Shown: positions 21,797 through 37,192 of the stretch, in pieces | Layout of the letters: each line of letters starts with the position of its first letter | How positions within the stretch are numbered: position 1 is the stretch's first letter | Assembly: GCA_037439945.1 (NCBI GenBank) | Contig: JBBIVA010000004.1 | Span: 1,309 to 65,308 of the forward strand | Length of the DNA stretch: 64,000 bases | Origin: Marinilabiliaceae bacterium | GTDB lineage: Bacteria; Bacteroidota; Bacteroidia; Bacteroidales; Marinilabiliaceae | Direction of reading: 5' to 3' | Translations under genes and position numbers: made by a program | Notes under the pieces: model-generated | The model's input: only the letters and a program-made list of their open reading frames with translations | Database searches by the model: none | Told to the model about the DNA's origin: nothing

Positions 21797-22825
21797 CTAA
21801 GTTCCAGCTTCTATAAATATTCTGTTGGATGATTCCCTTACATACAAACGCACCGGAATAATTTCTTCAATTCCATAACCTGGGTTGTTTCCTTCAACTA
21901 TTCTAATAAGCGACCGGGCAGCTCTTACGCCCATATCAAATGCGTTTTGTTCAACTGTTGTTAGTCTTGGGGCCATTAAATCGGCAAATGGCTCATTGGC
22001 AAAACCTACAACCCCAATATCATCCGGAATTTTATAGTCCAAAGTTAAAATTGCCTGGATTGCCCCTGATGCTGCAAAATCACCTGCACAAAAAAAAGCA
22101 TCAACTTTGTTGTTTTTCAACAAATTGAGAGCATGCTCAAAGCCAGTCTCTTTTGTAATGGCGTTTTCAATAATTATTGATTGATCCAATGGCAGCGATG
22201 CCTCATCAAGGGCATATTTATACCCCTTAAGCCTCTCCTGATAAACATTTACCCCAACCAATCCGGTTAAATGGGCAATCCGGGTATAACCGTTCCTTAT
22301 TAAATGTTTAACTGCCATGTAAGCCCCTGTAAAATTGTCGTTAATTATGCGGGGCCCCGGAACAGTTTTATTTACCCTGTCAAACTGGACTACAGGAACT
22401 CCTTCTTTACTGCATTTAATTATATGGTCAAAATTTATTGTATCAATCGAGTGCGACATTATTATACCGGCTACCCTGTTTTTAAACAATACATTTATAG
22501 CCTGCTTTTCCTTTAACTCTCTTTCGTGACTTTGACAAATTAAAAGATTATACCCCGATGGATTCAGTACTTCCTCAACTGCACTTATCACATGACTAAA
22601 GAAGTTCCTGTTTATCCGGGGTACTAACATACCAATAGTGTCACTTCGTCCTTTCCTTAAAGATGATGCAACAATATTGGGCTGATAACCTAATTCTTCT
22701 GCTTTCTGATGGACCCGAAGGCGAGTAACCTCGCTTACCCGCATATTGCCCGCCAATGCCCTGGAAACAGTAGAAGGTGTAACATCCAAGGCTTCAGCAA
22801 TATCAATTATAGTAATGCGTTTCAT
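21797..22825 (-). CDS. LacI family transcriptional regulator
   Basis: 342 aa. N-terminal HTH ITIIDIAEALDVTPSTVSRALAG and a periplasmic-binding-fold C-terminal domain. Confidence 0.95.
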   Translation of the reverse strand: MKRITIIDIAEALDVTPSTVSRALAGNMRVSEVTRLRVHQKAEELGYQPNIVASSLRKGRSDTIGMLVPRINRNFFSHVISAVEEVLNPSGYNLLICQSHERELKEKQAINVLFKNRVAGIIMSHSIDTINFDHIIKCSKEGVPVVQFDRVNKTVPGPRIINDNFTGAYMAVKHLIRNGYTRIAHLTGLVGVNVYQERLKGYKYALDEASLPLDQSIIIENAITKETGFEHALNLLKNNKVDAFFCAGDFAASGAIQAILTLDYKIPDDIGVVGFANEPFADLMAPRLTTVEQNAFDMGVRAARSLIRIVEGNNPGYGIEEIIPVRLYVRESSNRIFIEAGT

Positions 22826-22855
22826 AAACTGACCCGGCTAATATTATTACAAAAA

Positions 22856-22869
22856 TACAAACGTTTGCA
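22856..22869. promoter_or_regulatory. candidate LacI-type operator ACAAACGTTTGCAC
   Basis: CAAACGTTTG (22858-22867) is a perfect CG-centred palindrome of the classic LacI/PurR type. It lies about 35 bp upstream of the lacI start codon. Confidence 0.45.
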
Positions 22870-23056
22870 CATAAAACACAACAGAAATCTACTTTTTTTG
22901 GTTTTTGGGTAAAATAAAATAAGTGATATTTTACAAACCCCACATGTAGTATATTATAGAATGTGTTTTTAAAAAACATGTATAAGCATAAGAATCTTAA
23001 TATTACAAATTACCTTATATTTTTTTAAATACTCTTAAAGAATTTACATTAATTTT

Positions 23057-23101
23057 CTTGCAAAAAAAGTAAAGCTGTTATATCTTCGTGTTCGTTAACG
23101 A
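23057..23101 (+). promoter_or_regulatory. candidate uxaC promoter with overlapping palindrome TCGTTAACGA
   Basis: TTG (23058-23060) and TATCTTCG (23081-23088) approximate the Bacteroidota -33/-7 (TAnnTTTG) elements, with a 20-nt spacer. The 10-bp palindrome at 23092-23101 sits at the expected transcription start. Confidence 0.3.
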
Positions 23102-23113
23102 CAATTTAATTAT

Positions 23114-24508
23114 ATGGCAAATTTTATTCATCCCGATTTCATTTTAGAAAATAAAACTGCGCAAAAACTCTATCATGACTACGCTGAGAAGCTACCAATT
23201 GTTGATTTTCACTGCCATCTTTCACCAAAACTGATTGCCGATAACCATCAGTTTGACAGCCTTGGGCAAATTTGGCTTGAAGGTGATCACTACAAATGGA
23301 GGGCAATGCGCACAAACGGTGTTGACGAAGAATACTGCACAGGTAAACACTCTTTTCGCGATAAATTCCAGAAATGGGCTGAAACATTACCTTACACAAT
23401 TGGAAACCCGCTGCATCACTGGGCTCATCTTGAGTTGGCAAGGTATTTCAATATTTTTGAATTACTTACACCGTCAAACGCAGGTAAAATATATGATAAG
23501 GCCACCGAAATGTTGCGCCAGGATGACTTTACAACCCAAAACATCCTGAAAAAAATGAATGTTGATGTTGTGGGTACAACAGATGATCCTATTGATAACC
23601 TGGAACATCACAAAGCCCTTATTAATTTTAGCGTTAAAATAAGACCAACCTTCAGGCCCGACAATGTTCTGAAAACAGAAGACCCTGCTTTTTTCCTTGG
23701 TTATATAAAAAAACTTGAGGCAGCCTCGGGTAAATCAATATCAAACCTAGGTGAGCTTATTTCTGCTCTTGACGACCGCCATGCATATTTTAACAGTATA
23801 GGTTGCAAAGCATCGGACCATGGACTTGACAGATTATACTATACGGCTGAATTTAAAAAAGGTGCTGAAAAGTCATTCGAAAAACTATTGGCCGGCCAAT
23901 CCATAACCGGTGAAGAAACAGAAGGTTACAGAACCTATGTAATGTACGAGCTATGTAAAATGAACCACAAACGTGGCTGGGTACAGCAGTTCCATTTAGG
24001 TGCAATGCGCAACAATAATACACGTATGTTCCGCAAACTTGGGGCCGATGTTGGTTTTGATTCAATCGGCAATTCACAGGACGCTGTTAAAATTTCAAGG
24101 TTCATGGATTTGTTGGATACCGAAGATAAATTGGCTAAAACAATTTTGTACAACCTTAACCCTGCCGACAACGAAATGTTTGTTACCATGTTGGGGAATT
24201 TTCAGGATGGCAGGACACCAGGAAAAATACAATATGGGGCAGGTTGGTGGTTTCTTGACCAGAAAGTGGGCATGGAGAAACACCTGAGAGACTTATCAGT
24301 ACTTGGTTTAACTGCAAGATTTGTTGGTATGGTTACAGATTCGAGGAGTTTCCTGTCATACCCGAGACATGAATATTTCCGCAGAATTTTATGCAATTAC
24401 CTCGGGACCGAAATTGAAAAGGGACTCATTCCAAATGATCCGGAACTCTTAAAAAAGGTTGTTGAAGATATTTGCTACTTCAACCCAATGAATTATTTTG
24501 AATTTTAA
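23114..24508 (+). CDS. uxaC: glucuronate isomerase
   Basis: 464 aa. LPIVDFHCHL, DHYKWRAMR and GMVTDSRSFLSY motifs. Confidence 0.95.
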   Translation: MANFIHPDFILENKTAQKLYHDYAEKLPIVDFHCHLSPKLIADNHQFDSLGQIWLEGDHYKWRAMRTNGVDEEYCTGKHSFRDKFQKWAETLPYTIGNPLHHWAHLELARYFNIFELLTPSNAGKIYDKATEMLRQDDFTTQNILKKMNVDVVGTTDDPIDNLEHHKALINFSVKIRPTFRPDNVLKTEDPAFFLGYIKKLEAASGKSISNLGELISALDDRHAYFNSIGCKASDHGLDRLYYTAEFKKGAEKSFEKLLAGQSITGEETEGYRTYVMYELCKMNHKRGWVQQFHLGAMRNNNTRMFRKLGADVGFDSIGNSQDAVKISRFMDLLDTEDKLAKTILYNLNPADNEMFVTMLGNFQDGRTPGKIQYGAGWWFLDQKVGMEKHLRDLSVLGLTARFVGMVTDSRSFLSYPRHEYFRRILCNYLGTEIEKGLIPNDPELLKKVVEDICYFNPMNYFEF

Positions 24509-24589
24509 ATAAAACAGTAACCCCGATGGGTAAGTTATGAAATTTGTTTAATGTTATAAAGCAGAAAATGATATTTGAATTTAACTTTT

Positions 24590-24630
24590 CATCCGTAAAT
24601 TATTTTTTGATTAAGGCCGGATAGCCTGCC
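24590..24630 (-). repeat. orphan right-end module of the family-1 repeat
   Basis: CATCCGTAAATTATTTTTTGATTAAGGCCGGATAGCC matches the gene-proximal ends at 1364-1400 and 42961-43000. Here only ATG AAA AGT TAA follows. Confidence 0.6.
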
Positions 24631-24667
24631 CCAATATATTTTAATTCTAATTTTAACTATAATAAAA

Positions 24668-25705
24668 ATGAAACCAAAAGTTGTTTCTTTCGGAGAAATA
24701 ATGTTGAGATTATCCACACCAGGATACCAGCGATTTGCACAAGCTACGTCATTTGATGCATGTTATGGAGGTGGCGAAGCTAATGTTGCCGTTTCATTGG
24801 CGAACTATGGAATTGACTCCTCGTTTGTTACAGCGTTACCAAAAAATGACCTTGGACGTGCCTGTCATATGGAATTGATGAAATATGGTGTAGAAACGGA
24901 TAATATTAAGTTTGGAGGCGAAAGACTCGGTATTTATTTCCTTGAAACCGGTGCGGTTGCAAGGGCAAGCAAGGTTGTTTATGACCGTGCCCACTCATCT
25001 TTTTCACAGGTTAAAAAAGGCGATTTTGATTGGGACAAAATACTTGATGGTGTTTCATGGTTTCACTGGACAGGGATTACCCCTGCTGTTTCACAGGGAG
25101 CTGCTGATGCCTGCCTTGAAGCTATTCAAACTGCAAACAGAAAAGGTGTTACAGTATCATGTGATTTAAACTACCGTAAAAATTTATGGAAATATGGTAA
25201 AAAGGCAGGAGAAGTTATGCCTGTCCTTGTTGCCGGATGTGATGTGGTTTTAGGAAACGAAGAAGATGCCGAAATGGTGCTTGGAATTAAACCTGAAGGA
25301 GTTAACATAACGGGTGGACATGTTGAAGCTGAAGCATACCGAAGTGTTTCTGAACAAATTATGAAGCAGTTCCCAAGGGTTAAAAAAGTAATTACTACTT
25401 TACGCGGGTCAGTAAATGCCAATCATAATTCATGGTCGGGAGTTTTATTCGATGGCAAAAACCTTTATACAGCCCCAACTTATCAGATTACCCATATTGT
25501 TGACCGCGTAGGTGGTGGCGACTCTTTTATGGGTGGTTTAATTTATGGATTACTAACCTACACCGGTAATGATGAGAAAGCCCTGAATTTTGCTACAGCT
25601 GCATCCTGCTTAAAACATACAATACTTGGCGACTTTAACCAGGTTACTGTAGACGAGGTTGAAAAACTGATGGGGGGCGATGCATCAGGAAGAGTTTCGA
25701 GGTAA
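24668..25705 (+). CDS. kdgK: 2-dehydro-3-deoxygluconokinase (pfkB family)
   Basis: 345 aa. FGEIMLRL, GGGEANVA and DRVGGGDSF motifs. Located between uxaC and eda. Confidence 0.85.
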   Translation: MKPKVVSFGEIMLRLSTPGYQRFAQATSFDACYGGGEANVAVSLANYGIDSSFVTALPKNDLGRACHMELMKYGVETDNIKFGGERLGIYFLETGAVARASKVVYDRAHSSFSQVKKGDFDWDKILDGVSWFHWTGITPAVSQGAADACLEAIQTANRKGVTVSCDLNYRKNLWKYGKKAGEVMPVLVAGCDVVLGNEEDAEMVLGIKPEGVNITGGHVEAEAYRSVSEQIMKQFPRVKKVITTLRGSVNANHNSWSGVLFDGKNLYTAPTYQITHIVDRVGGGDSFMGGLIYGLLTYTGNDEKALNFATAASCLKHTILGDFNQVTVDEVEKLMGGDASGRVSR

Positions 25706-25799
25706 TACCAGAGAAAACAGTATTTAAGATGGTTATGATTTAATTTGTTAGTTCATAAAATCTACCCATCTTAAATCTACAATCAAATAATCTAATATT

Positions 25800-26471
25800 A
25801 TGGCAAAATATAGTCGAAGTGAGGTTTTTTCGGCAATGAAATCTACAGGTGTAGTGCCGGTATTTTTTCATTCTGATTTAGAAGTTTGTAAAAACGTTGT
25901 TAAAGCATGTTATGATGGGGGTATAAGGGTTTTTGAGTTTGTTAACCGTGGCGACTTTGCGCACGAAATATTCAGCGAGCTTAACAAATATGCTTTAAAA
26001 GAACTGCCCGGGATGATAATGGGTGCCGGATCACTTGTTGACCCGGCTACTACTGCCATTTATATTCAGGCAGGTGCAAATTTCATAGTTTCTCCATTAC
26101 TAAATGAAGAGATGGCAAAAATTTGTAACCGCCGTGGCGTTTCATGGTCACCCGGTTGCGGTACAATCTCTGAAATTAATAAGGCACAGGAACTGGGGGC
26201 AGAAGTAGTTAAGTTATTCCCGGCCTCTGAAATAGGGGGCCCTTCGTTTGTTAAAGCTGTAAAGGGCCCAATGCCCTGGACAAACATAATGCCAACAGGT
26301 GGGGTTGATACAACCGAACCGAACCTGAGGGAGTGGTTCGATGCAGGTGTGGTATGTGTTGGAATGGGATCAAACCTTTTTCCAAAGGAGATTATGGCAT
26401 CAAAGAACTATGGTGCTTTAACACAAAAAGTTACCGAATTAATGGAAACACTTAATAAAGTTAAAAAATAA
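25800..26471 (+). CDS. eda: KDPG / 4-hydroxy-2-oxoglutarate aldolase
   Basis: 223 aa. GIRVFEFVNRG, KLFPA and PTGGV motifs. Confidence 0.9.
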   Translation: MAKYSRSEVFSAMKSTGVVPVFFHSDLEVCKNVVKACYDGGIRVFEFVNRGDFAHEIFSELNKYALKELPGMIMGAGSLVDPATTAIYIQAGANFIVSPLLNEEMAKICNRRGVSWSPGCGTISEINKAQELGAEVVKLFPASEIGGPSFVKAVKGPMPWTNIMPTGGVDTTEPNLREWFDAGVVCVGMGSNLFPKEIMASKNYGALTQKVTELMETLNKVKK

Positions 26472-26476
26472 CCATT

Positions 26477-27325
26477 ATGAATTCTCCAATTGAAAAACTC
26501 AATCTTGAAGGAAAAGTTGGTGTTATTACCGGTGGTGGTGGAGTAATATGCTCCACCATGGCTAAAGCTATGGCTATGAATGGAATAAAAACAGCAATTC
26601 TTGACCTTAACCTTGAAGCGGCCGAAATTGTAGCCTCTGAAATTAAATCAACTACCGGAATTGAATCAATTGGCTTATCGGCTAACGTCCTTAATCGTGA
26701 ATCGTTGGAAGAAGCAAAAAAAATAATCAACCAGAAACTTGGTAAAATTGATTTTCTTATAAACGGGGCGGGTGGTAATGCTGCAACAGCAACATCAAAG
26801 GTTGAAAAAATGTCCCTTACCGACAATCCGGAAGATACATTCTTCGGATTACAGATTGAAGGTTTTGATAAAACCTTTGACCTGAACTTTAAAGGAACCC
26901 TTTTGCCTACATTGGTTTTTGCAACCGATATGATTGAAAAACAAAGCGGGGGAATCGTAAACATATCATCAATGAACTCATACAGGCCACTTACCAGAAT
27001 TGCGGCCTATTCAGCATCAAAAGCGGCTATAAACAATTTTACGCAATGGCTTTCAGTTCATTTTGCAAAAACAGGCGTAAGGGTTAATGCTATTGCTCCG
27101 GGATTTTTACTGACAAACCAAAACAGGTTTTTACTGGTTGATGAAAATACAGGCGAATCAACTCCACGCGGGAAAAAAATTATTAACGGAACTCCTATGG
27201 AACGTTATGGCACACCGGAAGAACTCTCAGGAACCCTTATTTATCTTTTATCAGACTGGTCGAAATTCATTACCGGAATAGTTATTCCTGTTGATGGTGG
27301 ATTTAGCGCCTACAGTGGTGTATAA
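26477..27325 (+). CDS. uxuB: SDR-type D-mannonate oxidoreductase-like enzyme
   Basis: 282 aa. LEGKVGVITGGGGVICSTMA, YSASKAA and NAIAPGF. Resembles the short-chain UxuB of Bacteroides. The function is inferred from context. Confidence 0.6.
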   Translation: MNSPIEKLNLEGKVGVITGGGGVICSTMAKAMAMNGIKTAILDLNLEAAEIVASEIKSTTGIESIGLSANVLNRESLEEAKKIINQKLGKIDFLINGAGGNAATATSKVEKMSLTDNPEDTFFGLQIEGFDKTFDLNFKGTLLPTLVFATDMIEKQSGGIVNISSMNSYRPLTRIAAYSASKAAINNFTQWLSVHFAKTGVRVNAIAPGFLLTNQNRFLLVDENTGESTPRGKKIINGTPMERYGTPEELSGTLIYLLSDWSKFITGIVIPVDGGFSAYSGV

Positions 27326-27451
27326 AAAGTTTATACCAAATTAAGCATTATTAAAATCAGGTTATTCTTTAATTGATTCAAATCTGTAAGTAAAACTATA
27401 AATAATATGATTACCTGATTTATTTTTATTTAACCCTTAATATCTGGTCTT

Positions 27452-28531
27452 ATGAGTATCGAATTAAAAAAAGAGTATAAATGGTCGCTTATAGTGCCAA
27501 CAAGCATGGGGGTAAGGATTACCCCTGCCAATGGTCAGCCGGTGCACAGCAGCGATACATTTTTTATGCAGGCAACCAGTGCTGAAACAAATGTTGCCAG
27601 CATCCCTTCTTATCTTGGTTTACCCGTTAAAGTGCTCACTACATTTGTTAAAGATAGCCCTATAGCTCAGTTTATTAAAAGCAACCTTAAGAACCGCCAT
27701 ATGGATTATGAAGGCGTAGAAGTTGAGCAGGGTGACCCATGGGGATACCGTCACCAGTTTAACATTGCCGACAGTGGCTTTGGTGCCCGTGGGCCAAGAG
27801 TTCAAAACGACAGGGCCGGTGAAGTTGGCCGCACATTAAATGTGAAAGATTTTGATTTAGACCGTATTTTTGGTAAAGAAGGTGTACTGGTAGTTCATTT
27901 ATCGGGACTAATTGGAGCTTTATCGCCCGAAACAAGCAATTTTTGCCTTGAGCTTGCCAGAGCTGCAAAAAAATACGGAACCCGTATCTCATTTGATTTG
28001 AACCACAGAGCATCATTCTGGAAGGGACGTGAAAAAGAACTCAGGGCTATTTTTACTGAGATAGCATCTGTTTCAGATATATTAATTGGTAATGAAGAGG
28101 ATTTCCAACTTTGCCTGGGCATTGAAGGACCTGAGGCCGGAGGTAAAGCCATAACCGACAAAATTGACAGCTTCAAGGAAATGATAATGAGAGTAAAAAA
28201 AGCCTTTCCTAATGCATCGGTATTTGCAACTACTTTAAGACAGGTAATAAATGCCAATGAACACCTTTGGGGAGCAATTATGCTTGAAGGTAATAACTGG
28301 CATATTGTTGAACCTCGTGAAATAAGAGTTCTTGACCGTATTGGCGGTGGCGATGGTTTTGTTGGAGGGATGATATATGGAATACTGAAAAATTGGGAAC
28401 CTCAAAAATGGATTCAGTTTGGATGGGCTACCGGTGCACTTGCAACTACTTTTATAACTGATTATGCACAACCTGCCGATGAAGATATGGTTTGGAGTAT
28501 TTGGGGTGGAAATGCAAGGGTAAGAAGATAG
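27452..28531 (+). CDS. pfkB-family sugar/sugar-acid kinase, second paralog, substrate unknown
   Basis: 359 aa. C-terminal DRIGGGDGFVGG anion-hole motif. Diverged from the kdgK at 24668. Confidence 0.75.
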   Translation: MSIELKKEYKWSLIVPTSMGVRITPANGQPVHSSDTFFMQATSAETNVASIPSYLGLPVKVLTTFVKDSPIAQFIKSNLKNRHMDYEGVEVEQGDPWGYRHQFNIADSGFGARGPRVQNDRAGEVGRTLNVKDFDLDRIFGKEGVLVVHLSGLIGALSPETSNFCLELARAAKKYGTRISFDLNHRASFWKGREKELRAIFTEIASVSDILIGNEEDFQLCLGIEGPEAGGKAITDKIDSFKEMIMRVKKAFPNASVFATTLRQVINANEHLWGAIMLEGNNWHIVEPREIRVLDRIGGGDGFVGGMIYGILKNWEPQKWIQFGWATGALATTFITDYAQPADEDMVWSIWGGNARVRR

Positions 28532-28623
28532 ATATTAAAATATCTTTTTTCAATAAACCCAAATGACCAATCAGGGATAAAAAAGAATTAGTTAGTTAAC
28601 ATTAACAACTAAAAATTTAAACC

Positions 28624-29898
28624 ATGGTATATTACAGGCGTGGGTCAGAGAATGATGTATTAACTTCTGAAGATTTAAAAACAGCACTTTATGCTGCCCT
28701 TGATAAACTCGGTGAGAAAAAAAGAGTCCTTGCCATTCCCCCTGATTATACACGTTATCATTCAAGGGCCGGTGAGTTAACTTCATACACTTATGAATAT
28801 TACAAAAACAATCTTGTAGATATTCTACCTGCCCTTGGAACGCATAGTCCAATGTCCGATCATGAAATCAGCCACATGTTCCCGGGTGTACCAAATAATC
28901 TGTTCAGAATTCATGACTGGCGTAACGATGTTGTTACCCTTGGTTTTGTGCCGGCTGATTACATAAAAGAAATTACCGGTGGACGTATTAATTATGAATG
29001 GCCTGCCCAGGTTAATAAACTTCTTATTGATGGTAATCATGACCTTATATTGTCAATTGGCCAGGTTGTTCCCCATGAAGTTATAGGAATGGCCAACTAC
29101 AACAAAAACATTTTTGTTGGAACCGGTGGCTCCGAAGGAATTAATAAAAGTCACTTTATTGGTGCTGCATACGGAATGGAACGAATAATGGGAAGGGCAA
29201 CCAATCCGGTACGTAAGGTATTGAATTATGCGTCAGAGAATTACACAAGTCATTTGCCAATTATATATGTACAAACGGTTGTGGGCAGGGCAAACGATGG
29301 AAAACTTGTTACGCGTGGAATTTTTATTGGTGATGATGAGGAAGTTTTTGAAATGGCCGCTGATTTATCAATAAAAGTGAATTTTGAAATGGTTCAGGAA
29401 CCCCTTAAAAAAGTGGTGGTTTATCTTGACCCATCTGAATTTAAAAGCACATGGTTAGGAAATAAAAGTATATACAGAACCAGAATGGCATTGGCCGATG
29501 GCGCTGAACTCATAGTACTGGCACCCGGACTTAAAGAGTTTGGAGAAGATAAAACCATCGACAAACTGATTCGGAAATATGGTTATTGTGGCACTCCAAA
29601 AACATTACATGCTGTTGAATCAAACCCTGAAATGAAAAGCAATCTTGGTGCTGCTGCCCACCTTATTCATGGAAGCTCTGAGGGGCGTTTTTCGGTTACC
29701 TATTGCCCGGGGTTTTTAACCCAAGAGGAAATTGAGTCTGTTCACTTTAATTATGCAGATTTAAATGAAATGACAAAATTATATGACCCCGAAAAACTTA
29801 ACGACGGGAAAAATATTTTGCAAAATGGCGAAGAAATATTTTATATCTCAAACCCGGCCGTTGGATTGTGGGCACATGGCGACCGTTTCAAAGACTAA
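28624..29898 (+). CDS. LarA-like (lactate racemase superfamily / DUF2088) protein, candidate sugar-acid epimerase
   Basis: 424 aa. PPDYTR, ALGTHSP, VPHEVIGMANYNK and NKSH align by eye with LarA SDHTRP, GFHRP (His108), SHFFAGFSGGRK (His174, Lys184) and NH (His200). Confidence 0.65.
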   Translation: MVYYRRGSENDVLTSEDLKTALYAALDKLGEKKRVLAIPPDYTRYHSRAGELTSYTYEYYKNNLVDILPALGTHSPMSDHEISHMFPGVPNNLFRIHDWRNDVVTLGFVPADYIKEITGGRINYEWPAQVNKLLIDGNHDLILSIGQVVPHEVIGMANYNKNIFVGTGGSEGINKSHFIGAAYGMERIMGRATNPVRKVLNYASENYTSHLPIIYVQTVVGRANDGKLVTRGIFIGDDEEVFEMAADLSIKVNFEMVQEPLKKVVVYLDPSEFKSTWLGNKSIYRTRMALADGAELIVLAPGLKEFGEDKTIDKLIRKYGYCGTPKTLHAVESNPEMKSNLGAAAHLIHGSSEGRFSVTYCPGFLTQEEIESVHFNYADLNEMTKLYDPEKLNDGKNILQNGEEIFYISNPAVGLWAHGDRFKD

Positions 29899-30012
29899 AA
29901 ACAAGGTAAAAGGTAAAAGATAATAGAGAAAGAGAATAAATGTAAAATCAAATTGAACCTGATCATCTAAAATCTATAATGTATAAATAAACCCCTTAAA
30001 ATCAAATAAAAA

Positions 30013-31467
30013 ATGAAAGCATTATCAGACATTGGCCTAATTGGATTGGCGGTTATGGGTGAGAACCTGGTCCTTAATATGGAAAGCAAAGGTTTCCAGG
30101 TTTCTGTATTTAACCGTTCAACAGATAAAGTTGACAGTTTTATTGCCGGACGTGCCAAAGGAAAAAATATTAAAGGTACACATACCCTCAGGGAATTGGT
30201 TCAATCGCTTGAGAAACCACGGAAAGTAATGCTTATGATCAAAGCAGGAAAAGCTCTTGATGATAATATCGAAAGCCTTATACCCCTTCTTGAACCAGGC
30301 GATATTATTATTGATGGTGGTAATACACATTTCCCCGACACAAACAGGCGTACAACATACGTAGAAAGCCATGGTTTGCTATATATAGGAACGGGAGTAT
30401 CAGGTGGTGAAGAAGGAGCTCTTTTAGGCCCCTCAATTATGCCCGGGGGCTCACCAAAGGCATGGCCAATTGTTAAACCAATTTTTCAGGCAATATCAGC
30501 AAAAGTAAATGACGGGACACCATGCTGCGATTGGGTTGGAGAGAATGGTGCAGGTCACTTTGTTAAAATGGTCCACAACGGTATTGAGTATGGTGACATG
30601 CAGCTTATTAATGAAGCGTATCATGTTATGAAGGATATGCTCGGAATGTCAGGCAATGAAATGTATGAAACTTTCAAAGAGTGGAACGAAGGCCCGTTAG
30701 ACAGTTACCTGATTGAAATAACCAGGGACATTCTTGGATACAAGGATACTGATGGATCACCGCTTGTAGAAAAAATTCTTGATACGGCAGGGCAAAAAGG
30801 GACAGGAAAATGGACTGCCGTGTCGGCCCTTGACTTAGGTATTCCTTTAACACTTATCGGAGAAGCAGTTTTCTCACGTTGTCTCTCGGCCATTAAAGAT
30901 GAACGCGTTGCAGCATCCAAAGTAATTTCTGGCCCAAAACCATCGTTTAAAGGCGATAAAAAGCAATTTCTGAAAGACTTGCATGATGCACTTTATGCTT
31001 CAAAGGTAGTATCATATGCACAAGGTTATGCATTGATGGCAGCGGCCGCAAAAGAGTATGGCTGGAATCTAAATTATGGTGGTATTGCCCTTATGTGGCG
31101 CGGAGGATGTATCATTCGTTCGGTATTCCTTGGAAAGATAAAAGATGCATTTGATAAAAATCCAAATCTGACCAACCTGTTACTTGATCCGTTCTTTAAG
31201 GAAATTGTGGAAAAAGCACAGGCCGGATGGCGCAAAGTTGTTGCCGAGGCAGTCTTAAATGGAATTCCTGTACCGGCTTTCGCCACAGCCCTTAACTATT
31301 TCGACGGCTATAGAAGCGAAAGGCTGCCGGCTAACCTGCTTCAGGCACAACGTGATTATTTTGGTGCGCATACATATGAACGTATTGATAAACCACGGGG
31401 TGAATATTTCCATACAAACTGGACCGGAAGAGGAGGAACAACTGCATCGTCAACATATAATGTTTAA
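30013..31467 (+). CDS. gnd: NADP-dependent 6-phosphogluconate dehydrogenase (decarboxylating)
   Basis: 484 aa. IGLIGLAVMGENL, GAGHFVKMVHNGIEYGDMQLI and RDYFGAHTYER. Confidence 0.95.
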   Translation: MKALSDIGLIGLAVMGENLVLNMESKGFQVSVFNRSTDKVDSFIAGRAKGKNIKGTHTLRELVQSLEKPRKVMLMIKAGKALDDNIESLIPLLEPGDIIIDGGNTHFPDTNRRTTYVESHGLLYIGTGVSGGEEGALLGPSIMPGGSPKAWPIVKPIFQAISAKVNDGTPCCDWVGENGAGHFVKMVHNGIEYGDMQLINEAYHVMKDMLGMSGNEMYETFKEWNEGPLDSYLIEITRDILGYKDTDGSPLVEKILDTAGQKGTGKWTAVSALDLGIPLTLIGEAVFSRCLSAIKDERVAASKVISGPKPSFKGDKKQFLKDLHDALYASKVVSYAQGYALMAAAAKEYGWNLNYGGIALMWRGGCIIRSVFLGKIKDAFDKNPNLTNLLLDPFFKEIVEKAQAGWRKVVAEAVLNGIPVPAFATALNYFDGYRSERLPANLLQAQRDYFGAHTYERIDKPRGEYFHTNWTGRGGTTASSTYNV

Positions 31468-31473
31468 TTTTAT

Positions 31474-31517
31474 AAGTCTCAGAGTGCCTTGTGTAACTCT
31501 GAGACTACCCTTTTTTA
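31474..31517 (+). terminator. intrinsic terminator after gnd
   Basis: 11-bp arms AGTCTCAGAGT and ACTCTGAGACT, followed by CCCTTTTTT. Confidence 0.75.
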
Positions 31518-31579
31518 ATACGAAATACAAATAATCAATATCAACCAGTTTAAATAATCATAATTTAACGCCCATCCAA

Positions 31580-32611
31580 ATGAATAATAAATTGATTGCT
31601 TTGTTTGTTTTGGTTGCACTGTTAAGCAGTTGCGGACTAAAACACGATGTAAAGATCCTTAAACTTGGGCACACCCTCGATACAAAACACTCGGTGCATG
31701 TGGCTATGGAATTTATGGCAAAAAGAGCCAATGAGTTGTCCGGCGGAAAACTTGAGATTCAGATTTATCCCGGTGGTGTTTTGGGTTCGGAGAGAGAAAG
31801 CCTTGAGTTACTTCAGCTTGGCAGTTTAGACCTCACGAAAGTTTCAGCTGCGGCCATGGAAGGTTTTGTGGAAGAATATAAAGTTTTTGGATTGCCATAT
31901 ATTTTTAGCGACAAGCAACACTGTTACAATGTTTTGGATGGACCTATAGGAGAAGAAATGCTGGCCAAAGGAGATAAATTCTGGTTAAGGGGCCTGTGTT
32001 TTTACGATGCAGGAGCCCGAAGTTTCTATTCATCGGTTCCCCTTAATACTCCAAATGATTTAAAAGGAAAAAAAATCAGGGTAATGCAAAGCATTACTGC
32101 AGTGGAAATGATACGGGCAATGGGCGGGGCCCCAACACCAATAGCCTGGGGTGAGCTTTATACAGCTCTACAGGGTGGTGTAGTTGACGGTGCCGAAAAC
32201 AATCCTCCAAGTTTTTATTTATCGAGGCACTATGAAGTATGTAAATATTATATTCTTAATGAGCATACTATGATTCCGGATGTAATGATTGTTAGCACAC
32301 ATGCCTGGAATAAGCTTAATGATGATGAAAAAAAGTGGCTTCAGCAGGCTGCTGATGAATCAGTAGTGGTTCAAAGAAAGGAATGGAAAAAGTCGGAAGA
32401 AGAAGCCCTTGCTGCGGTGAAAGAAGCCGGTGTAACGGTAGTTTACCCCGATAAAACCCCTTTTATGGCTCCTGTAGAAGGCGTATTTGACCTTTATAAG
32501 TCAAACCCAAAAGTTTATGACCTCATAAAACAGATTAAGGCCCTTAAAACGGGTACAGCAATACCCGATTCAATTAAACAGGGGAATCAAACCACTGGCC
32601 AAATAAATTAG
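31580..32611 (+). CDS. dctP: TRAP transporter substrate-binding lipoprotein
   Basis: 343 aa with lipobox LLSSC, followed by small and large TRAP permease genes. Confidence 0.9.
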   Translation: MNNKLIALFVLVALLSSCGLKHDVKILKLGHTLDTKHSVHVAMEFMAKRANELSGGKLEIQIYPGGVLGSERESLELLQLGSLDLTKVSAAAMEGFVEEYKVFGLPYIFSDKQHCYNVLDGPIGEEMLAKGDKFWLRGLCFYDAGARSFYSSVPLNTPNDLKGKKIRVMQSITAVEMIRAMGGAPTPIAWGELYTALQGGVVDGAENNPPSFYLSRHYEVCKYYILNEHTMIPDVMIVSTHAWNKLNDDEKKWLQQAADESVVVQRKEWKKSEEEALAAVKEAGVTVVYPDKTPFMAPVEGVFDLYKSNPKVYDLIKQIKALKTGTAIPDSIKQGNQTTGQIN

Positions 32612-32657
32612 AAATAACTAAACCCGCTATAAACAATATAGTAATAAACTCTTAATT

Positions 32658-33143
32658 ATGAAATTCAGAGAAAAAATTGACAGAATACTCGAAATTTTTC
32701 TTATAATAATAATGAGTACTCTGGTAATTGATGTAGTTTGGCAGGTAGCAAGTCGCTACATATTTGCCAATCCAAGTTCTTTCACCGATGAACTGGCAGG
32801 ATTTCTGCTAATTTGGGTAGGTATGGCCGGTGCTGCCTATGTTAAAGGCAAAAATGAACACCTGGCAATAGATATTCTCCATAGTAAACTCTCACCGCAA
32901 AACAGGGCCCGTTTGCTCATATTTATCAATTCCCTTATAGTTATATTCTGTATATCAATTATGATAATAGGGGGAATATGGCTGGTTTATACCCGTTTTG
33001 TTTTGGGACAGATATCTGCAGCTTTACAAATTCCAATTGGTTATGTTTACATGATTGTTCCCATAACCGGAATATTAATGACATATTATGCCATTGATGA
33101 TATAAAATTATTTTTCCAAGAGTTAAAATCCTTAAACCAATAA
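32658..33143 (+). CDS. dctQ: TRAP transporter small permease
   Basis: 161 aa with four TM segments, located between dctP and dctM. Confidence 0.85.
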   Translation: MKFREKIDRILEIFLIIIMSTLVIDVVWQVASRYIFANPSSFTDELAGFLLIWVGMAGAAYVKGKNEHLAIDILHSKLSPQNRARLLIFINSLIVIFCISIMIIGGIWLVYTRFVLGQISAALQIPIGYVYMIVPITGILMTYYAIDDIKLFFQELKSLNQ

Positions 33144-33147
33144 TGCC

Positions 33148-34452
33148 ATGGAGCTCGATATATTAGGAATTCTGGTTCTCGTTTTATCTTTTCTTTTCTT
33201 TCTGGTAATTGGTGTTCCGGTTGCCTATAGTATAGGTTTATCCGCAGTTGCCACCATGTTGGTCAGTTTTGATGCCTTACCTGCTTATTCAACCCTGGCT
33301 CAACGGATGGCCACCAGTCTTGACAGTTTTTCACTTTTAGCCATACCCTTTTTTATTCTCGCCGGGCAGCTGATGAACTCAGGGGGAATTGCCATACGAC
33401 TTATTGAATTTGCAAAAGTAATGGTGGGACGCCTTCCTGGCGGGTTAGCCTTTGTAAATGTTACGGCAAATATGTTGTTTGGGGCAATTTCAGGGTCCGC
33501 CGCAGCATCGGCATCGGCAATTGGTTCAATAATGGGCCCCCAAATGAAAAAAGAGGGATATGAAGAAAATTTCTCTGCAGCAATAAACATTACATCTGCA
33601 ACAACAGGCTTAGCAATTCCGCCAAGTAATATTCTGATAGTTTATTCGCTTGCAAGTGGTGGGGTTTCAATTGCAGCATTATTTCTGGCCGGTTATCTTC
33701 CGGGCATTTTAACAGGTATTGCCCTAATGATTGTAGGCGGGGTTTATGCTTACAGAAAAAAATATCCGGTTGGACAATCTGTTACATTGAAATTTGCAAC
33801 CAAAAAATTTCTTGATGCAATTCCGAGCCTTTTACTTCTTTTAATTGTAATTGGTGGTATTGTAGCCGGCTTTTTTACCGCTACCGAAGCTTCAGCAATT
33901 GCTGTTGTTTATTGTCTTGTACTCGCATTTGTTTACAAGGAGGTAAAAATGAAAAACCTACCGGCAATAATTGTAAACACAGTTAAAACCACCGGAATTG
34001 TTATGTTGCTTATTGCAACATCCATGGGGTTATCATGGGTTATGTCATTCGAAAATATTCCACAAACTGTAAGCGATGGCCTTTTATCGGTTTCATCAAA
34101 CCCGTTTATGATTTTACTTATGATTAACCTTATATTGTTATTTGTTGGTATATTTATGGATATGACACCGGCAGTACTGATTTTTACCCCCATATTTCTG
34201 CCCATAGTAACATCACAACTGGGACTGGATCCTATTCATTTTGGAATAATAATGATTCTTAACCTAAATGTGGGGTTATGCACACCACCGGTTGGATCAG
34301 TATTATTCATCGGATGCAGCGTAGCAAAACTTAAAATTCAGGATGTTGTAAAACCTATGATCCCGTTTTTTATTGCCATGATAGTTATTCTGTTATTAAT
34401 AACGTACATACCATCAATCAGTTTGGTTGTCCCAAGGATGTTTGGGTTCTAA
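33148..34452 (+). CDS. dctM: TRAP transporter large permease
   Basis: 434 aa polytopic protein. LLAIPFFILAGQLMN and FGAISGSAAA motifs. Confidence 0.9.
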   Translation: MELDILGILVLVLSFLFFLVIGVPVAYSIGLSAVATMLVSFDALPAYSTLAQRMATSLDSFSLLAIPFFILAGQLMNSGGIAIRLIEFAKVMVGRLPGGLAFVNVTANMLFGAISGSAAASASAIGSIMGPQMKKEGYEENFSAAINITSATTGLAIPPSNILIVYSLASGGVSIAALFLAGYLPGILTGIALMIVGGVYAYRKKYPVGQSVTLKFATKKFLDAIPSLLLLLIVIGGIVAGFFTATEASAIAVVYCLVLAFVYKEVKMKNLPAIIVNTVKTTGIVMLLIATSMGLSWVMSFENIPQTVSDGLLSVSSNPFMILLMINLILLFVGIFMDMTPAVLIFTPIFLPIVTSQLGLDPIHFGIIMILNLNVGLCTPPVGSVLFIGCSVAKLKIQDVVKPMIPFFIAMIVILLLITYIPSISLVVPRMFGF

Positions 34453-34529
34453 ACAGGATCAAATTCCTGCATAAAGAATGGCATTTGCAGATTGAAATTA
34501 ACTTGCAAATGCCCTTCAAATAATATAAA

Positions 34530-34706
34530 ATGAAACGAACATGTTTACGAAAAACTTAACTTTTACAACTGGTGAACAGGTTTCTCACCTATTTTCGGGA
34601 AACAACATTGATTCGAAAATAGATGATGTAAAAATTGTGAACATGAAGTTCATCCGGCAAACCGGATCAAGCTATCCGGCTTTAAAATAAAAATTATTTA
34701 CGGATG
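34530..34706 (+). repeat. family-1 dispersed repeat, divergent copy ending on the LacI start codon
   Basis: Starts ATGAAACGAACATGTTTACGAAAAAC and ends AGCTATCCGGCTTTAAAATAAAAATTATTTACGGATG, where ATG is 34704. Confidence 0.7.
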
Positions 34707-35750
34707 AAACAAGTCAGAATTAAAGATATTGCAATTAAAGCCGGGGTTTCAATTGGAACTGTTGACAGGGTTTTACATGACAGGGGTGAAGTTGCTGCCG
34801 AAACCCGGGAGAAAGTTTTAACTATGGCCCGGGAAATGCACTATCAGCCAAACATTGTAGCACAGGCGCTTACATCAAAAAAACAATATAACCTTGCCGC
34901 TTTATTACCACGCGGCGGCGATGATAATGTTTACTGGATGTTACATCCACAGGGAATTGAAAAGGCGGTAAAGGAACTACAGCCATTCCAGGTTGATGTA
35001 AGGTTCTTTTTCTTTGAGTTGCATAATGGGCCAGATTTCCTGAAAAAAACAGAAGAAATACTTGAATATAACCCTGAAGGGGTAATTTTTGCACCTATAC
35101 TAAAGAAAGAGTCTTTAAGGTTTTGCGATGGGTTGGATCAGGCAAATATTCCATATATTTTTATAGACACATTCATTGAAAATACCCAATGCCTTGCTTT
35201 CATAGGTGAGGATGCCTATCAGGGCGGGCGCGTTGCTGCAAGCCTTATTGATTATGGCTTAAACACCTTAAAAGATATTTTGATTGTAAACATTGCAAAA
35301 GATTTGGAAAATACCCAACACCTCAATGCCAGGAACCAAGGTTTTATGAGTTTCTTTTTAGATGCCGGAAAAAATATGGGGATGAAAATTACCGTTGAAA
35401 TTCCCTCAGCTGAAAGCAGTGAAGTTGAAAAACGAATGGACTTTATCCTTAATAACAACAAAAATATTGGGGCTGTTTTGGTTTCAAGTGCAAAAACACA
35501 TGTTATAGCCCGGTATATTGAAAAAAAGAAACTTAAAGATATTACCCTTGTTGGATATGAAGTAACACGTAAAAATGTAGATTATCTCAAAAAGGGTATA
35601 ATTCAATTCCTTATCGGTCAAAAACCAAAGGAGCAGGCCGGTAAAGCTGTAAAAAAGATGTTTGACTACCTTACAGCACGAAAACTGCCGGTAAAAAGAG
35701 AATACCAACCGGTTGAAATCATTAATGTTGAAAATGTAGATCTTTTTTAA
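34704..35750 (+). CDS. LacI family transcriptional regulator
   Basis: 348 aa with N-terminal HTH VRIKDIAIKAGVSIGTVDRVLH. Confidence 0.9.
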   Translation: MKQVRIKDIAIKAGVSIGTVDRVLHDRGEVAAETREKVLTMAREMHYQPNIVAQALTSKKQYNLAALLPRGGDDNVYWMLHPQGIEKAVKELQPFQVDVRFFFFELHNGPDFLKKTEEILEYNPEGVIFAPILKKESLRFCDGLDQANIPYIFIDTFIENTQCLAFIGEDAYQGGRVAASLIDYGLNTLKDILIVNIAKDLENTQHLNARNQGFMSFFLDAGKNMGMKITVEIPSAESSEVEKRMDFILNNNKNIGAVLVSSAKTHVIARYIEKKKLKDITLVGYEVTRKNVDYLKKGIIQFLIGQKPKEQAGKAVKKMFDYLTARKLPVKREYQPVEIINVENVDLF

Positions 35751-35852
35751 CCGGAGATAAAATTGTGGGTATGCAAATATATCAAAATGAACACAAAGTT
35801 TCAATTACATGGTTTCGGCGCTTAAAAAAAACTACCGAATAAAAACTTTAAT

Positions 35853-37103
35853 ATGAAAAAACTTTCAAAATACTCAATTGGGATGGGCGACAGATTTGCC
35901 CATCAGGCAAAATGGCAGTTAAAAGCCGTTATCGATGCCGAAAAAAAAGGGTTCAGTATAACCCCTGTGTGGAATAAATCAAACCGGGAACATACATTTA
36001 TTGGGAGTAAACCCGAAGATACAAGAAATGCTGTTGAAGTAGCTGTTAAAACATCAAACTGGAACAAACCATATTTTGTTGATGCCGACCACATTAACCT
36101 GGATACGGTTGATAAATTCATGGCCGGTTCAGATTTCTTCACCATAGATGTGGCTTCATACATTGGTAAACAAGGTGATTGTGCTGAAGTAAATTCATTC
36201 ATTGAAAAAATGAAGCCATATATTGGTACCTTTAACATCCCCGGGATTTCCAAACCATTTAACATTACTGAGGACAAACTGAAAGAAATTGCCGACCAGT
36301 TTTTTTATGCAGCCTGCATGGCCGGCGAAACATATAAAAAAATTGTTGCAGCTAAAGGTGAAGGAAATTTCATAACCGAGGTTTCAATGGATGAAGTACC
36401 AAATCCACAAACCCCTGTTGAACTGTTTTTCATTTTAGCTATGCTGGCCCATTATAAGGTTCCGGCACAAACTATCGCACCCAAATTTACAGGCAGGTTT
36501 AATAAAGGTGTTGATTATGTTGGCAATACCAAAGCTTTTGCCGAAGAGTTTGAATCAAGTCTTTTAGTTATTGACTTTGCTATAGAAAAATTCGGTTTAC
36601 CATCTGAATTAAAAATGAGTATTCATTCTGGTTCAGACAAATTCAGTATTTATGAACCAATTCGCGACCTGACCCAAAAGTATGGTAAAGGTTTTCACCT
36701 AAAAACAGCGGGTACTACATGGCTTGAAGAAGTAATAGGGTTGGCGCTGGCCGGTGGTGAGGCTCTCGATTTCGCAAAGGATATTTATGCAAGAGCCCTT
36801 CAAAATGTTGAAAAACTTTGTGCTCCTTATGCTGATGTTATTGATATTGATGAATCAAAACTACCATCTGCCGAAACTGTTAAAACCTGGAGCAATGAGG
36901 ATTTGGCAAATGCATTGCGTCATATTCCAGGGCATTCACAATACAACCCAAATATGCGTCAATTAGTGCATGTGGCATTTAAACTGGCTGCCGAAAAAAT
37001 TGATAAGTATAATGAACTTCTCGAAAAACATGAAGAGATTGTTGGACAATGCGTTTATGACAATATTTATGAAAGGCATTTAAAAAGGTTGCTTAATCTA
37101 TAA
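35853..37103 (+). CDS. uxaE: tagaturonate/fructuronate epimerase family protein
   Basis: 416 aa. FVDADHI, SIHSGSDKFSIY, HLKTAGTTWLEE and RQLVHVAF match Thermotoga UxaE blocks (SLHSGSDKFSVY, HVKTAGTSYLEA, RQLIHVTYG). Confidence 0.85.
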   Translation: MKKLSKYSIGMGDRFAHQAKWQLKAVIDAEKKGFSITPVWNKSNREHTFIGSKPEDTRNAVEVAVKTSNWNKPYFVDADHINLDTVDKFMAGSDFFTIDVASYIGKQGDCAEVNSFIEKMKPYIGTFNIPGISKPFNITEDKLKEIADQFFYAACMAGETYKKIVAAKGEGNFITEVSMDEVPNPQTPVELFFILAMLAHYKVPAQTIAPKFTGRFNKGVDYVGNTKAFAEEFESSLLVIDFAIEKFGLPSELKMSIHSGSDKFSIYEPIRDLTQKYGKGFHLKTAGTTWLEEVIGLALAGGEALDFAKDIYARALQNVEKLCAPYADVIDIDESKLPSAETVKTWSNEDLANALRHIPGHSQYNPNMRQLVHVAFKLAAEKIDKYNELLEKHEEIVGQCVYDNIYERHLKRLLNL

Positions 37104-37121
37104 TTGCTTAAACAGTAAACT

Positions 37122-37157: not shown

Positions 37158-37192
37158 AACCTTTTATACATAATATAACCTGTTACAGTAGA

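Follow-up and report, generated by a model that had tools for sequence, protein, structure and literature searches.

In Thermotoga maritima, GntE was proposed to convert D-mannonate to D-gluconate, and GntK and Gnd were proposed to lead the gluconate into the pentose-phosphate pathway (Rodionova et al. 2012, as represented in the papers that cite it: PMC7583248, PMC6978723, and PMC3750489). The Thermotoga operon aldH-pelB-gnd-uxaR-uxaE-uxaD-gntE-gntK is induced on pectin (PMC3750489). Here we describe four co-directional genes in a pectin locus of a Marinilabiliaceae bacterium, on a 64-kb stretch of DNA that we refer to as the window (assembly GCA_037439945.1, contig JBBIVA010000004.1, positions 1,309 to 65,308). 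They encode a short-chain dehydrogenase/reductase (SDR) of the mannonate oxidoreductase type, a diverged pfkB kinase that we call Kin2, a homologue of the lactate racemase LarA, and the 6-phosphogluconate dehydrogenase Gnd. We suggest that this block probably represents, in Bacteroidota, the Thermotoga-type "GntE branch" for the catabolism of hexuronates.

D-Gluconate 2-epimerase activity that depends on nickel-pincer nucleotide (NPN) as a cofactor was reported for LarAH19 and LarAH20 (Desguin et al. 2020, PMC7583248). LarAH15 of Phytophthora nicotianae is a narrow-spectrum GntE, with a Km of 9.4 mM and a kcat of 111 per second (PMC11770544). These reports bear out an earlier, sequence-only reading of the window, which had named sugar-acid epimerase activity as reported within the LarA superfamily. 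Epimerization between D-mannonate and D-gluconate has been observed in vitro with GntE1, GntE2 (kcat 197/s), and LarAH15 (PMC7583248, PMC11770544). For group 18 of the LarA homologues (LarAH), Table S1 of Desguin et al. 2020 gives a gene context of SDR (36%), 6-phosphogluconate dehydrogenase (32%), ribokinase-family kinase (16%), UxaC (12%), and KduI (12%). Among the sources of the group members in their table are Tannerella, Melioribacter, Acidobacteria, spirochaetes, clostridia, planctomycetes, diatoms, and Phytophthora infestans (PMC7583248). All five of these context genes are present in the window.

A second precedent comes from Lactobacillus suebicus, whose extracts convert mannonate and ATP to 6-phosphomannonate, which is then epimerized to 6-phosphogluconate (PMC6978723). 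The pathway and the enzyme family are thus already published, and the kinase step alone is without prior characterization.

Results

Family, residues, and fold of the LarA homologue

The four open reading frames (ORFs) are all on the plus strand and match exactly those reported by the sequence-only reading: the SDR at 26477 to 27325 (282 aa), Kin2 at 27452 to 28531 (359 aa), the LarA homologue at 28624 to 29898 (424 aa), and gnd at 30013 to 31467 (484 aa). They lie between eda (25800 to 26471) and the DctPQM TRAP (tripartite ATP-independent periplasmic) transporter (31580 to 34452).

The LarA homologue matched the NCBIfam model NF052594 with 669.5 bits, against a cutoff of 500, and the next-best LarAH models scored 30 bits or less. 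NF052594 is the equivalog for "nickel-dependent putative hexonate epimerase" (NPN_18_hexonate) and equals LarAH group 18 of Desguin 2020. The match to Pfam Lar_N was modest (34.7 bits; cutoff, 23.3). The best solved relative was T. maritima TM0442, which is GntE2 (4NAR; E = 1.8e-35 with the single sequence and 7e-52 with a profile), and a profile match to the LarA apoprotein 2YJG had an E value of 2e-5. An AlphaFold2 model, made from a shallow alignment, had a pLDDT of 81.9, with low confidence in the cofactor loop (residues 153 to 173). All 19 significant Foldseek matches in the PDB were to the LarA superfamily, with TM scores of 0.77 for 4NAR and 0.68 for 5HUQ.

The translation contains the LarA motifs PPDYTR, GTHSP, VPHEVIGMANYNK, and NKSH. 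The functional residues that had been picked out in them by eye stood up to alignment. Residues D41 and R44 (both in PPDYTR), H74, H151, and K281 correspond to LarA D72, R75, H108, H174, and K298. The cofactor residues K161 and H177 correspond to the NPN-tethering K184 and the nickel ligand H200. K161, H177, and R44 also align with GntE2 K164, H180, and R41, and K281 was placed by way of the GntE2 alignment and the published group 18 signature "N K S". None of the seven residues varies among the orthologues compared (81 of 81, from 7 phyla). In the substrate pocket, E152, V153, and H346 are likewise invariant, and A345 is alanine in 79 of the 81. These four residues occupy the positions of LarA F175, F176, W358, and T359, and "E, V, A, H" is the pattern described for gluconate 2-epimerases (Urdiain-Arraiza et al. 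2024, PMC11770544). The group 18 signature columns read PHEV, TWLGNKS, and AAAHLIHGSS in the window protein. Residue roles in the superfamily were taken from PMC7583248 and PMC11770544.

On this evidence, the best-supported assignment is that the LarA homologue is a group 18 member of the GntE clade and a predicted NPN-dependent C2 hexonate epimerase that interconverts D-mannonate and D-gluconate. Public records call some close homologues "D-mannonate epimerase" and many others "nickel-dependent lactate racemase." With E, V, A, and H in place of F175, F176, W358, and T359, the window protein is predicted not to be a lactate racemase, and judged from these positions the latter label on its homologues is a misannotation. 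LarA homologues are uncommon in reference Bacteroidota, where they occur in 9 of the 192 genomes of the COG set.

A group 18 enzyme has probably been assayed already. The forward primer used for LarAH15 encodes M-A-TLLFAEG, which matches "MTLLFAEGSKTAELSD" of the group 18 protein PITG_09435 from P. infestans, and TLLFAEG is the N terminus of the LarA domain in that protein. The assignment of LarAH15 is based on this primer heptapeptide and on the grouping of the P. infestans orthologue.

Conservation of the operon across phyla

When one genome per species was scanned with a degenerate pattern, relatives turned up in at least 591 genomes. We kept the best 80 loci, whose epimerases are 64 to 78% identical to the window protein, and compared the ORFs in them with the proteins of the window and with E. 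coli reference enzymes. These loci come from Bacteroidota, Ignavibacteria, Acidobacteriota, Verrucomicrobiota, Planctomycetota, Spirochaetota, and two metagenome-assembled genomes (MAGs) labeled Gammaproteobacteria. The ORF pipeline called the epimerase in 79 loci; the 80th, from a spirochaete MAG (L055), also carries it.

Within 10 kb of the epimerase, we found the mannonate-oxidoreductase-type SDR in 55 of the 79 loci and gnd in 52. The hexuronate genes uxaE and uxaC were present in 36/79 and 30/79, respectively, a Kin2 orthologue (>60% identity) in 29/79, another pfkB kinase in 19/79, bona fide UxuA in 7/79, and a classical gluconokinase in 1/79. The combination of SDR, epimerase, and gnd recurs over seven phyla, with uxaE and uxaC as its usual neighbors. 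When we considered the 49 loci that have at least 4 kb on both sides of the epimerase, the counts within 5 kb were 38 for gnd, 36 for the SDR, and 30 for a pfkB kinase other than KdgK. In 11 of these 49, the SDR-epimerase-gnd operon has no kinase within 5 kb, which fits a replaceable, ordinary gluconate kinase. In one acidobacterium (L067), a bona fide gluconokinase of the GntK/IdnK type adjoins the epimerase and uxaE.

The gene order in Planctomycetota loci is SDR-epimerase-Kin2-gnd. The cultured type strain Alkaliflexus imshenetskii (assembly GCA_000517065.1) has a locus that is syntenic with the window gene for gene, with an epimerase that is 84% identical and a Kin2 that is 91% identical. 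The operon occurs widely among anaerobic degraders of polysaccharides, those of the Marinilabiliales type included.

Some relatives carry additional genes. A GFO/IDH/MocA oxidoreductase and a PdxB-like D-2-hydroxyacid dehydrogenase lie between the epimerase and gnd in 24 to 32 of the 80 loci (for example, L021:11287-13417, L091:12546-14662, and L090:12447-13577) and are absent from the window. The PdxB-like protein combines 2-Hacid_dh with DUF3410 and scored 427.6 bits with PRK00257, against a cutoff of 434. It may be a housekeeping pdxB beside gnd, or it may point to extra phospho-sugar-acid chemistry. In a few loci, an HAD-like protein of 300 aa is encoded directly upstream of the epimerase and replaces Kin2 (L018:7581-9780, L042:7722-9897, and L062:9056-9991), and a gene of the pyrophosphate (PPi)-phosphofructokinase type precedes the HAD-like gene in L015, L018, and L042. 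We considered these two genes as an alternative hexonate kinase and rejected them, because the phosphofructokinase-family gene scores as a PPi-phosphofructokinase.

The SDR and mannonate as the branch point

The SDR starts 5 bp past the end of eda and scored 382.3 bits with NCBIfam PRK08277 (cutoff, 281), as expected for an UxuB-like, SDR-type fructuronate reductase/D-mannonate oxidoreductase. It is analogous to UxaD of Thermotoga. In the 7 related loci with UxuA, the uxuA gene lies directly 3' of the SDR gene, inside the same operon. The order SDR-UxuA-Kin2-epimerase-gnd, with or without Kin2, occurs in Carboxylicivirga, Paludibacter, Draconibacterium, and others. The inserted UxuA scored 540 bits with TIGR00695 (cutoff, 199.55) and is thus a true mannonate dehydratase. 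Because UxuA directly follows the SDR in relatives, D-mannonate is both the SDR product and the branch point. The UxuA and epimerase branches coexist at mannonate in these relatives, as they do in Thermotoga, and a uxuA gene elsewhere in the genome would therefore not refute the model. The sequence-only reading had counted a present and essential uxuA, together with missing larBCE, against the route; the presence of uxuA is no such sign, given the operons that contain both uxuA and the epimerase.

The LarA homologue could in principle act on a different pair (L-gulonate/L-idonate, D-altronate/D-allonate, or D-galactonate/D-talonate), or it could run from gluconate to mannonate and so feed UxuA. 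The curated name of group 18 goes no further than "putative hexonate epimerase," the GFO/IDH/MocA and PdxB-like inserts in many relatives hint at extra sugar-acid chemistry, and uxuA within some operons would suit the reverse direction. However, the E-V-A-H signature equals that of proven gluconate/mannonate epimerases, and the SDR scores above the D-mannonate oxidoreductase cutoff, with UxuA, a user of D-mannonate, directly behind it in relatives. The strongest partners of the epimerase are uxaE, uxaC, and gnd, and the window itself is without uxuA and without idonate or altronate enzymes. We therefore regard another substrate pair or the reverse direction as very unlikely, and conversion of D-mannonate to D-gluconate remains our preferred reading.

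Kin2, a dedicated pfkB kinase

The description of Kin2 as a "diverged" pfkB kinase proved apt. It scored 63.8 bits with Pfam PfkB (cutoff, 25.8) and fell below the cutoff of every KdgK, IolC, and fructokinase model. Its scores with the KdgK equivalogs were 94.3 bits for NF041332 (cutoff, 440), 41.2 for NF040938 (cutoff, 400), and 21.5 for NF052444 (cutoff, 400). By these scores Kin2 should not be classed as a KdgK, despite the use of that name for its homologues by JGI. Neither NCBIfam nor Pfam gave a match of Kin2 to a gluconokinase family (P-loop GntK/IdnK or FGGY GntK). Any gluconokinase activity of Kin2 would be that of a non-orthologous enzyme.

Kin2 is 33% identical by BLASTP to KdgK1, the kdgK-type kinase encoded upstream of eda in the window, and 24 to 30% identical to genuine KdgK proteins in an alignment. 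Its best solved homologue is the 2-keto-3-deoxygluconate (KDG) kinase of T. maritima (2AFB, TM0067; E = 1e-30). We collected 27 full-length Kin2 orthologues, which form a tight clade with a mean identity of 80%. The phosphoryl-transfer motifs GNEED (NxxE) and DRIGGGD (with the catalytic Asp of GxGD) are conserved in all 27. The N-terminal GG dipeptide, the sugar-lid motif of the family, is missing: SAETNVA in the Kin2 clade stands against GGGEANVA in KdgK1 and GGAEANVA in 2AFB. In addition, the FGE strand of KdgK is replaced by TSMG.

Kin2 was always immediately beside the LarA homologue (27 full-length orthologues, 3 named genomes), and a search from the kinase side placed it immediately upstream of the epimerase in 3 of 3 named genomes. 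A second, distinct pfkB clade is directly beside the epimerase in 15 loci, mainly from Ignavibacteria and Verrucomicrobiota. The two clades have in common the motif GFGxRxPxV, which KdgK does not have. Across Bacteroidota, Kin2 is 77 to 86% identical, compared with 66 to 73% for the epimerase and 43 to 81% (mostly 59 to 73%) for the SDR in the same loci. For a kinase of peripheral catabolism, constraint of this strength is unusual. From its constant position, Kin2 is a dedicated partner of the epimerase operon. We predict that it is a hexonate 6-kinase, most likely for gluconate and possibly for mannonate.

It could also be that the epimerase and Gnd work as proposed but that Kin2 is a second KDG-type kinase, or some other keto-deoxy/hexonate kinase, and that an unlinked GntK acts on gluconate. 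The only family similarity of Kin2 is to KDG, 2-keto-3-deoxygalactonate (KDGal), and IolC-type kinases, all below cutoff, and many epimerase operons have no Kin2, including that of the closest relative in the genome scan (L002). Yet Kin2 is a clade distinct from KdgK, with altered substrate-side motifs and low identity to the genuine enzyme, and it keeps its place next to the epimerase. A genuine KdgK is already encoded 2 kb upstream, and the unlinked GntK would have to lie elsewhere, as the window has no GntK or FGGY kinase. We consider a KDG-type role for Kin2 improbable.

Order of the kinase and epimerase steps

The substrate of Kin2 decides the order of the kinase and epimerase steps. If the kinase came first, as in L. 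suebicus, Kin2 would be a mannonate 6-kinase, and the LarA homologue would epimerize 6-phospho-D-mannonate to 6-phospho-D-gluconate for Gnd. L. suebicus extracts interconvert 6-phosphomannonate and 6-phosphogluconate and do not convert free mannonate to gluconate (PMC6978723). The Bacteroidota gene order SDR-Kin2-epimerase-gnd matches this order of reactions, and Kin2 is seen only beside the epimerase and is not a known type of gluconokinase. Furthermore, group 18 proteins have an invariant H-G-S-S/T-x-G-R after AAH, whereas GntE2 has NVRGAGT; that this is a phosphate site is speculation.

Nevertheless, we favor epimerization before phosphorylation, which we judge probable, over phosphorylation first, which we judge unlikely. 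We do so because three enzymes of the GntE clade, including the probable group 18 orthologue, turn over free mannonate at 59 to 197 per second; because 11 of the 49 operons with full flanks have the SDR, epimerase, and gnd but no kinase within 5 kb; because the acidobacterial locus has a true GntK/IdnK beside the epimerase and uxaE; because Planctomycetota place Kin2 after the epimerase; and because the L. suebicus activity is not known to be linked to a LarA-type protein. The lactobacilli in the Desguin table have only group 01 LarA, that is, lactate racemases, and we rejected a LarA-type 6-phosphomannonate epimerase in lactobacilli as a candidate on that ground. It is likewise unlikely that Kin2 and the group 18 LarA homologue are the missing genes of an L. 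suebicus-like route through a kinase for mannonate plus a 2-epimerase for 6-phosphomannonate.

Proposed route

In the route that we favor, galacturonate and glucuronate would be taken up by the TRAP system. UxaC would isomerize the hexuronate, and for galacturonate UxaE would then epimerize tagaturonate to fructuronate. The SDR would reduce fructuronate with NAD(P)H to D-mannonate, the substrate of the LarA homologue. In that enzyme, the NPN would be tethered covalently to K161, with H177 as a nickel ligand. C2 would be oxidized transiently by transfer of a hydride to the cofactor and then re-reduced from the opposite face, with H74 and H151 as the acid/base pair, to give D-gluconate. Kin2 would phosphorylate gluconate at C6 to 6-phosphogluconate, and Gnd would convert this to ribulose-5-phosphate, CO2, and NADPH. 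Overall, the path from hexuronate to pentose phosphate would be redox neutral. It would run parallel to the route for unsaturated uronates, in which KduI and KduD lead to KDG and then to KdgK1 and Eda.

The observations behind this route are the gene identities, the residue conservation, the fold, and the synteny across phyla, and the literature contributes, by analogy, the epimerase activity of clade members on free mannonate. The substrate of the kinase, the direction of flux, and the production of the cofactor in this organism are what we infer. A mannonate-to-gluconate-to-6-phosphogluconate branch through an NPN epimerase was the central proposal of the sequence-only reading, and family, residues, and synteny across phyla make it the best-supported one.

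Several points weigh against this route. The literature assays cover GntE1, GntE2, and LarAH15, none of which is a bacterial group 18 enzyme. The Km values of characterized GntE enzymes for free mannonate are high, at 9 to 120 mM (PMC7583248, PMC11770544), so the free acid may not be the best substrate and a phosphorylated one is possible. L. suebicus extracts phosphorylate mannonate before they epimerize the 6-phosphate (PMC6978723). Kin2 is a KdgK paralogue outside both known gluconokinase families, and its motif contrasts show divergence but cannot separate gluconate from mannonate. The cofactor genes larB, larC, and larE were not found in the 64-kb window. Finally, the share of flux that would pass through the branch hinges on whether uxuA is present elsewhere in the genome.

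NPN cofactor supply in related genomes

In Saccharicrinis sp. FJH62 (L048:12819-18599), genes for a TonB-dependent receptor, NikR, a 244-aa unannotated protein, and LarB-LarC-LarE adjoin the epimerase operon, and NikR, LarB, LarC, and LarE all scored above curated cutoffs. The spirochaete MAG has LarB and LarE above NCBIfam cutoffs, and LarC by BLASTP, near the epimerase. LarC is common in Marinilabiliales, where we found it in Saccharicrinis, Prolixibacteraceae, Draconibacterium, and Mangrovibacterium. Of the LarC matches listed (at least 66% identity), none belongs to a named Marinilabiliaceae genus with the epimerase. The window encodes none of NikR, LarB, LarC, and LarE. On the lineage level, the neighborhoods in relatives answer the question of cofactor supply positively. 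The Saccharicrinis neighborhood suggests a nickel-regulated and possibly TonB-dependent supply of nickel for NPN synthesis in Bacteroidota.

The surrounding catabolic block and pectin locus

The four genes are part of a longer co-directional run (23114 to 37103) in the order uxaC, kdgK-type kinase, eda, SDR, Kin2, LarA homologue, gnd, dctPQM, LacI, and uxaE, with intergenic gaps of 4 to 251 bp. The first gene of this run is uxaC (23114 to 24508, plus strand), which encodes a glucuronate/galacturonate isomerase (Pfam UxaC, 654 bits; NCBIfam NF002794, 603.5 bits, cutoff 387). The last is uxaE (35853 to 37103, plus strand), which encodes a tagaturonate/fructuronate 3-epimerase (Pfam UxaE, 174.6 bits, cutoff 27.1; Cohnella UxaE 6IL9, E = 5.9e-22) and connects galacturonate to the mannonate route. 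KdgK1 (24668 to 25705, plus strand) scored 113 bits with PfkB, had its strongest match to the kinase half of a KHG/KDPG aldolase-kinase fusion model (502 bits), and retains the motifs FGEIMLRL and GGGEANVA. By these features it is a genuine KDG-kinase-like paralogue. The KDPG/KHG aldolase gene eda, also on the plus strand, scored 361.8 bits with NCBIfam NF005499 (cutoff, 275), and gnd encodes an NADP-dependent decarboxylating 6-phosphogluconate dehydrogenase (TIGR00873, 774.2 bits; cutoff, 426.7).

The plus-strand TRAP transporter (Pfam DctP, 271 bits; DctQ, 100.7 bits; DctM, 417.7 bits) is the probable hexuronate uptake system. It holds the same position in the loci of A. imshenetskii, Carboxylicivirga, and Planctomycetota, and relatives of Thermotoga have a UxaR-regulated uxaPQM TRAP transporter (PMC3750489). 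A LacI-family regulator, LacI_b (34704 to 35750, plus strand; Pfam LacI plus Peripla_BP_4), follows the transporter. In 29 of the 79 loci, an orthologue of this regulator is encoded no more than 10 kb from the epimerase, mostly just upstream of the SDR.

On the minus strand, at 18171 to 20168, are genes for a KduD-like SDR (PRK07097, 434 bits; cutoff, 369), a KdgF-like cupin (Cupin_2), and KduI (NF002091, 425 bits; cutoff, 250). They form the route from unsaturated uronates to KDG and supply KdgK1 and Eda. UxaC, UxaE, and this KduI/cupin/KduD-like set were thus all present as had been read from the DNA. The absences that had been noted also agreed with our searches: with E. coli queries, tblastn (E ≤ 1e-3) gave no match in the 64-kb window to uxuA, uxaA, uxaB, or long-chain UxuB. 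Nor did tblastn with E. coli queries match P-loop GntK, an FGGY kinase, or GntU in the window. The surrounding pectin polysaccharide utilization locus (PUL) also encodes SusC, SusD, two GH28 enzymes, GH43, a GH88/105-type hydrolase, a CE8 pectinesterase, a GDSL esterase, and a hybrid two-component regulator.

We also searched for regulatory elements. Rfam gave no match in the window at gathering thresholds, hence no Ni/Co or other riboswitch. Scans of 22700 to 37300 for sigma-70 promoters and intrinsic terminators gave counts at or below the shuffle means, with a promoter consensus that does not cover Bacteroidota promoters. Scans of the intergenic regions for short inverted repeats gave weak palindromes only. 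Two of these, centered on CTTGCAA, lie at 23049 to 23072, upstream of uxaC, and at 34492 to 34519, upstream of the second LacI gene. Operators of the LacI type are one possible reading, although both palindromes are short and imperfect, with 87% and 71% complementarity.

Genes for DUF4861 proteins flank the cytoplasmic catabolic block on both sides (16846 to 18081 and 38769 to 40037, both on the minus strand). Both proteins resemble the BT3233 family, with scores below its cutoff, and the same DUF4861 gene is present in the syntenic A. imshenetskii locus. A 444-aa ORF in the PUL (40422 to 41756, minus strand) had no Pfam match at E ≤ 1e-4 and sits between a DUF4861 protein and the GH88/105-type hydrolase. 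Upstream of the PUL, a 703-aa ORF with a TTG start (13457 to 15568, plus strand) has only a faint RHS-repeat match, a 160-aa ORF without a family (15516 to 15998, plus strand) overlaps it, and a PRiA4_ORF3-like protein is encoded at 2781 to 3365. These three may be mobile or toxin-related genes. Genes of central metabolism also occur near the PUL. One resembles fructose-6-phosphate aldolase/transaldolase (8083 to 8748, minus strand; 203 bits against a cutoff of 246), and those at the far end of the window (60915 to 63085, minus strand) resemble an oxaloacetate decarboxylase alpha subunit and a biotin carrier.

Discussion

If the proposed route is correct, many anaerobic pectin degraders send hexuronates to pentose phosphate without a net redox cost, and they require nickel and the NPN cofactor to do so. 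The carriers would include Marinilabiliales, Prolixibacteraceae, Paludibacter, Ignavibacteria, Verrucomicrobiota, and Planctomycetota. Models of the metabolism behind pectin fermentation in sediments, soda lakes, and guts would then be affected, and the assignment would correct the common misannotation of these proteins as "lactate racemase" and "2-dehydro-3-deoxygluconokinase." It is also relevant to the engineering of galacturonate-to-product conversions, an interest stated in the work on L. suebicus (PMC6978723). Should Kin2 be a gluconokinase, it would be the first of the pfkB family and a third, non-orthologous type of gluconokinase. Should the kinase act first instead, the LarA homologue would be the first NPN enzyme to act on a phosphorylated sugar acid, and Kin2 would be the first identified mannonate kinase. 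The specificity of the kinase can be tested, since A. imshenetskii is cultured and has the syntenic locus.

Such a route had been called unusual for a Bacteroidota pectin locus. We would not call it so, as a curated NCBI family, the published group 18 context, and the Thermotoga pathway all precede it. As in Thermotoga, genes for UxaE, a fructuronate reductase of the SDR type, and Gnd are gathered in a pectin locus, and the branch stands beside the kdgK/eda route; Thermotoga has uxuA as well. Some Thermotoga species also share the TRAP transporter, as uxaPQM. The LarA homologue resembles Thermotoga GntE2 (LarAH20) in superfamily, fold, catalytic and cofactor residues, and the E-x...A-H specificity pattern. 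However, the two are only about 24% identical in the Foldseek alignment and belong to different LarAH groups (18 here and 20 in Thermotoga). Their signature columns differ as well, with E-V here and E-S in GntE2, N in place of G ahead of the catalytic Lys, and HGSS instead of NVRG behind AAH. The regulator is of the LacI type here and is the GntR-type UxaR in Thermotoga.

The more distant relatives give similar contrasts. L. plantarum LarA (5HUQ) shares the fold (TM score, 0.68) and all seven functional residues with the window protein at about 16% identity. Kin2 has the pfkB fold, the GxGD Asp, and the NxxE motif of 2AFB but no longer has the GG dipeptide or the N-terminal FGE motif. Like the hybrid isomerase-phosphoketolase pathway of L. 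suebicus, the proposed route would lead from hexuronate through mannonate and 6-phosphogluconate to ribulose-5-phosphate, would be redox neutral, and would bypass UxuA, KdgK, and Eda. Unlike in the order that we favor here, the kinase acts first in L. suebicus, and the kinase candidates there are gluconokinase homologues.

The kinase also differs from that of Thermotoga. There, it is named gntK (gluconate kinase) and is an FGGY-type enzyme, whereas the window has the diverged pfkB protein Kin2. Among the six functions of the Thermotoga-type branch (UxaC, UxaE, UxaD, GntE, GntK, and Gnd), five are present here by homology, and a pfkB enzyme is the candidate for the kinase slot.

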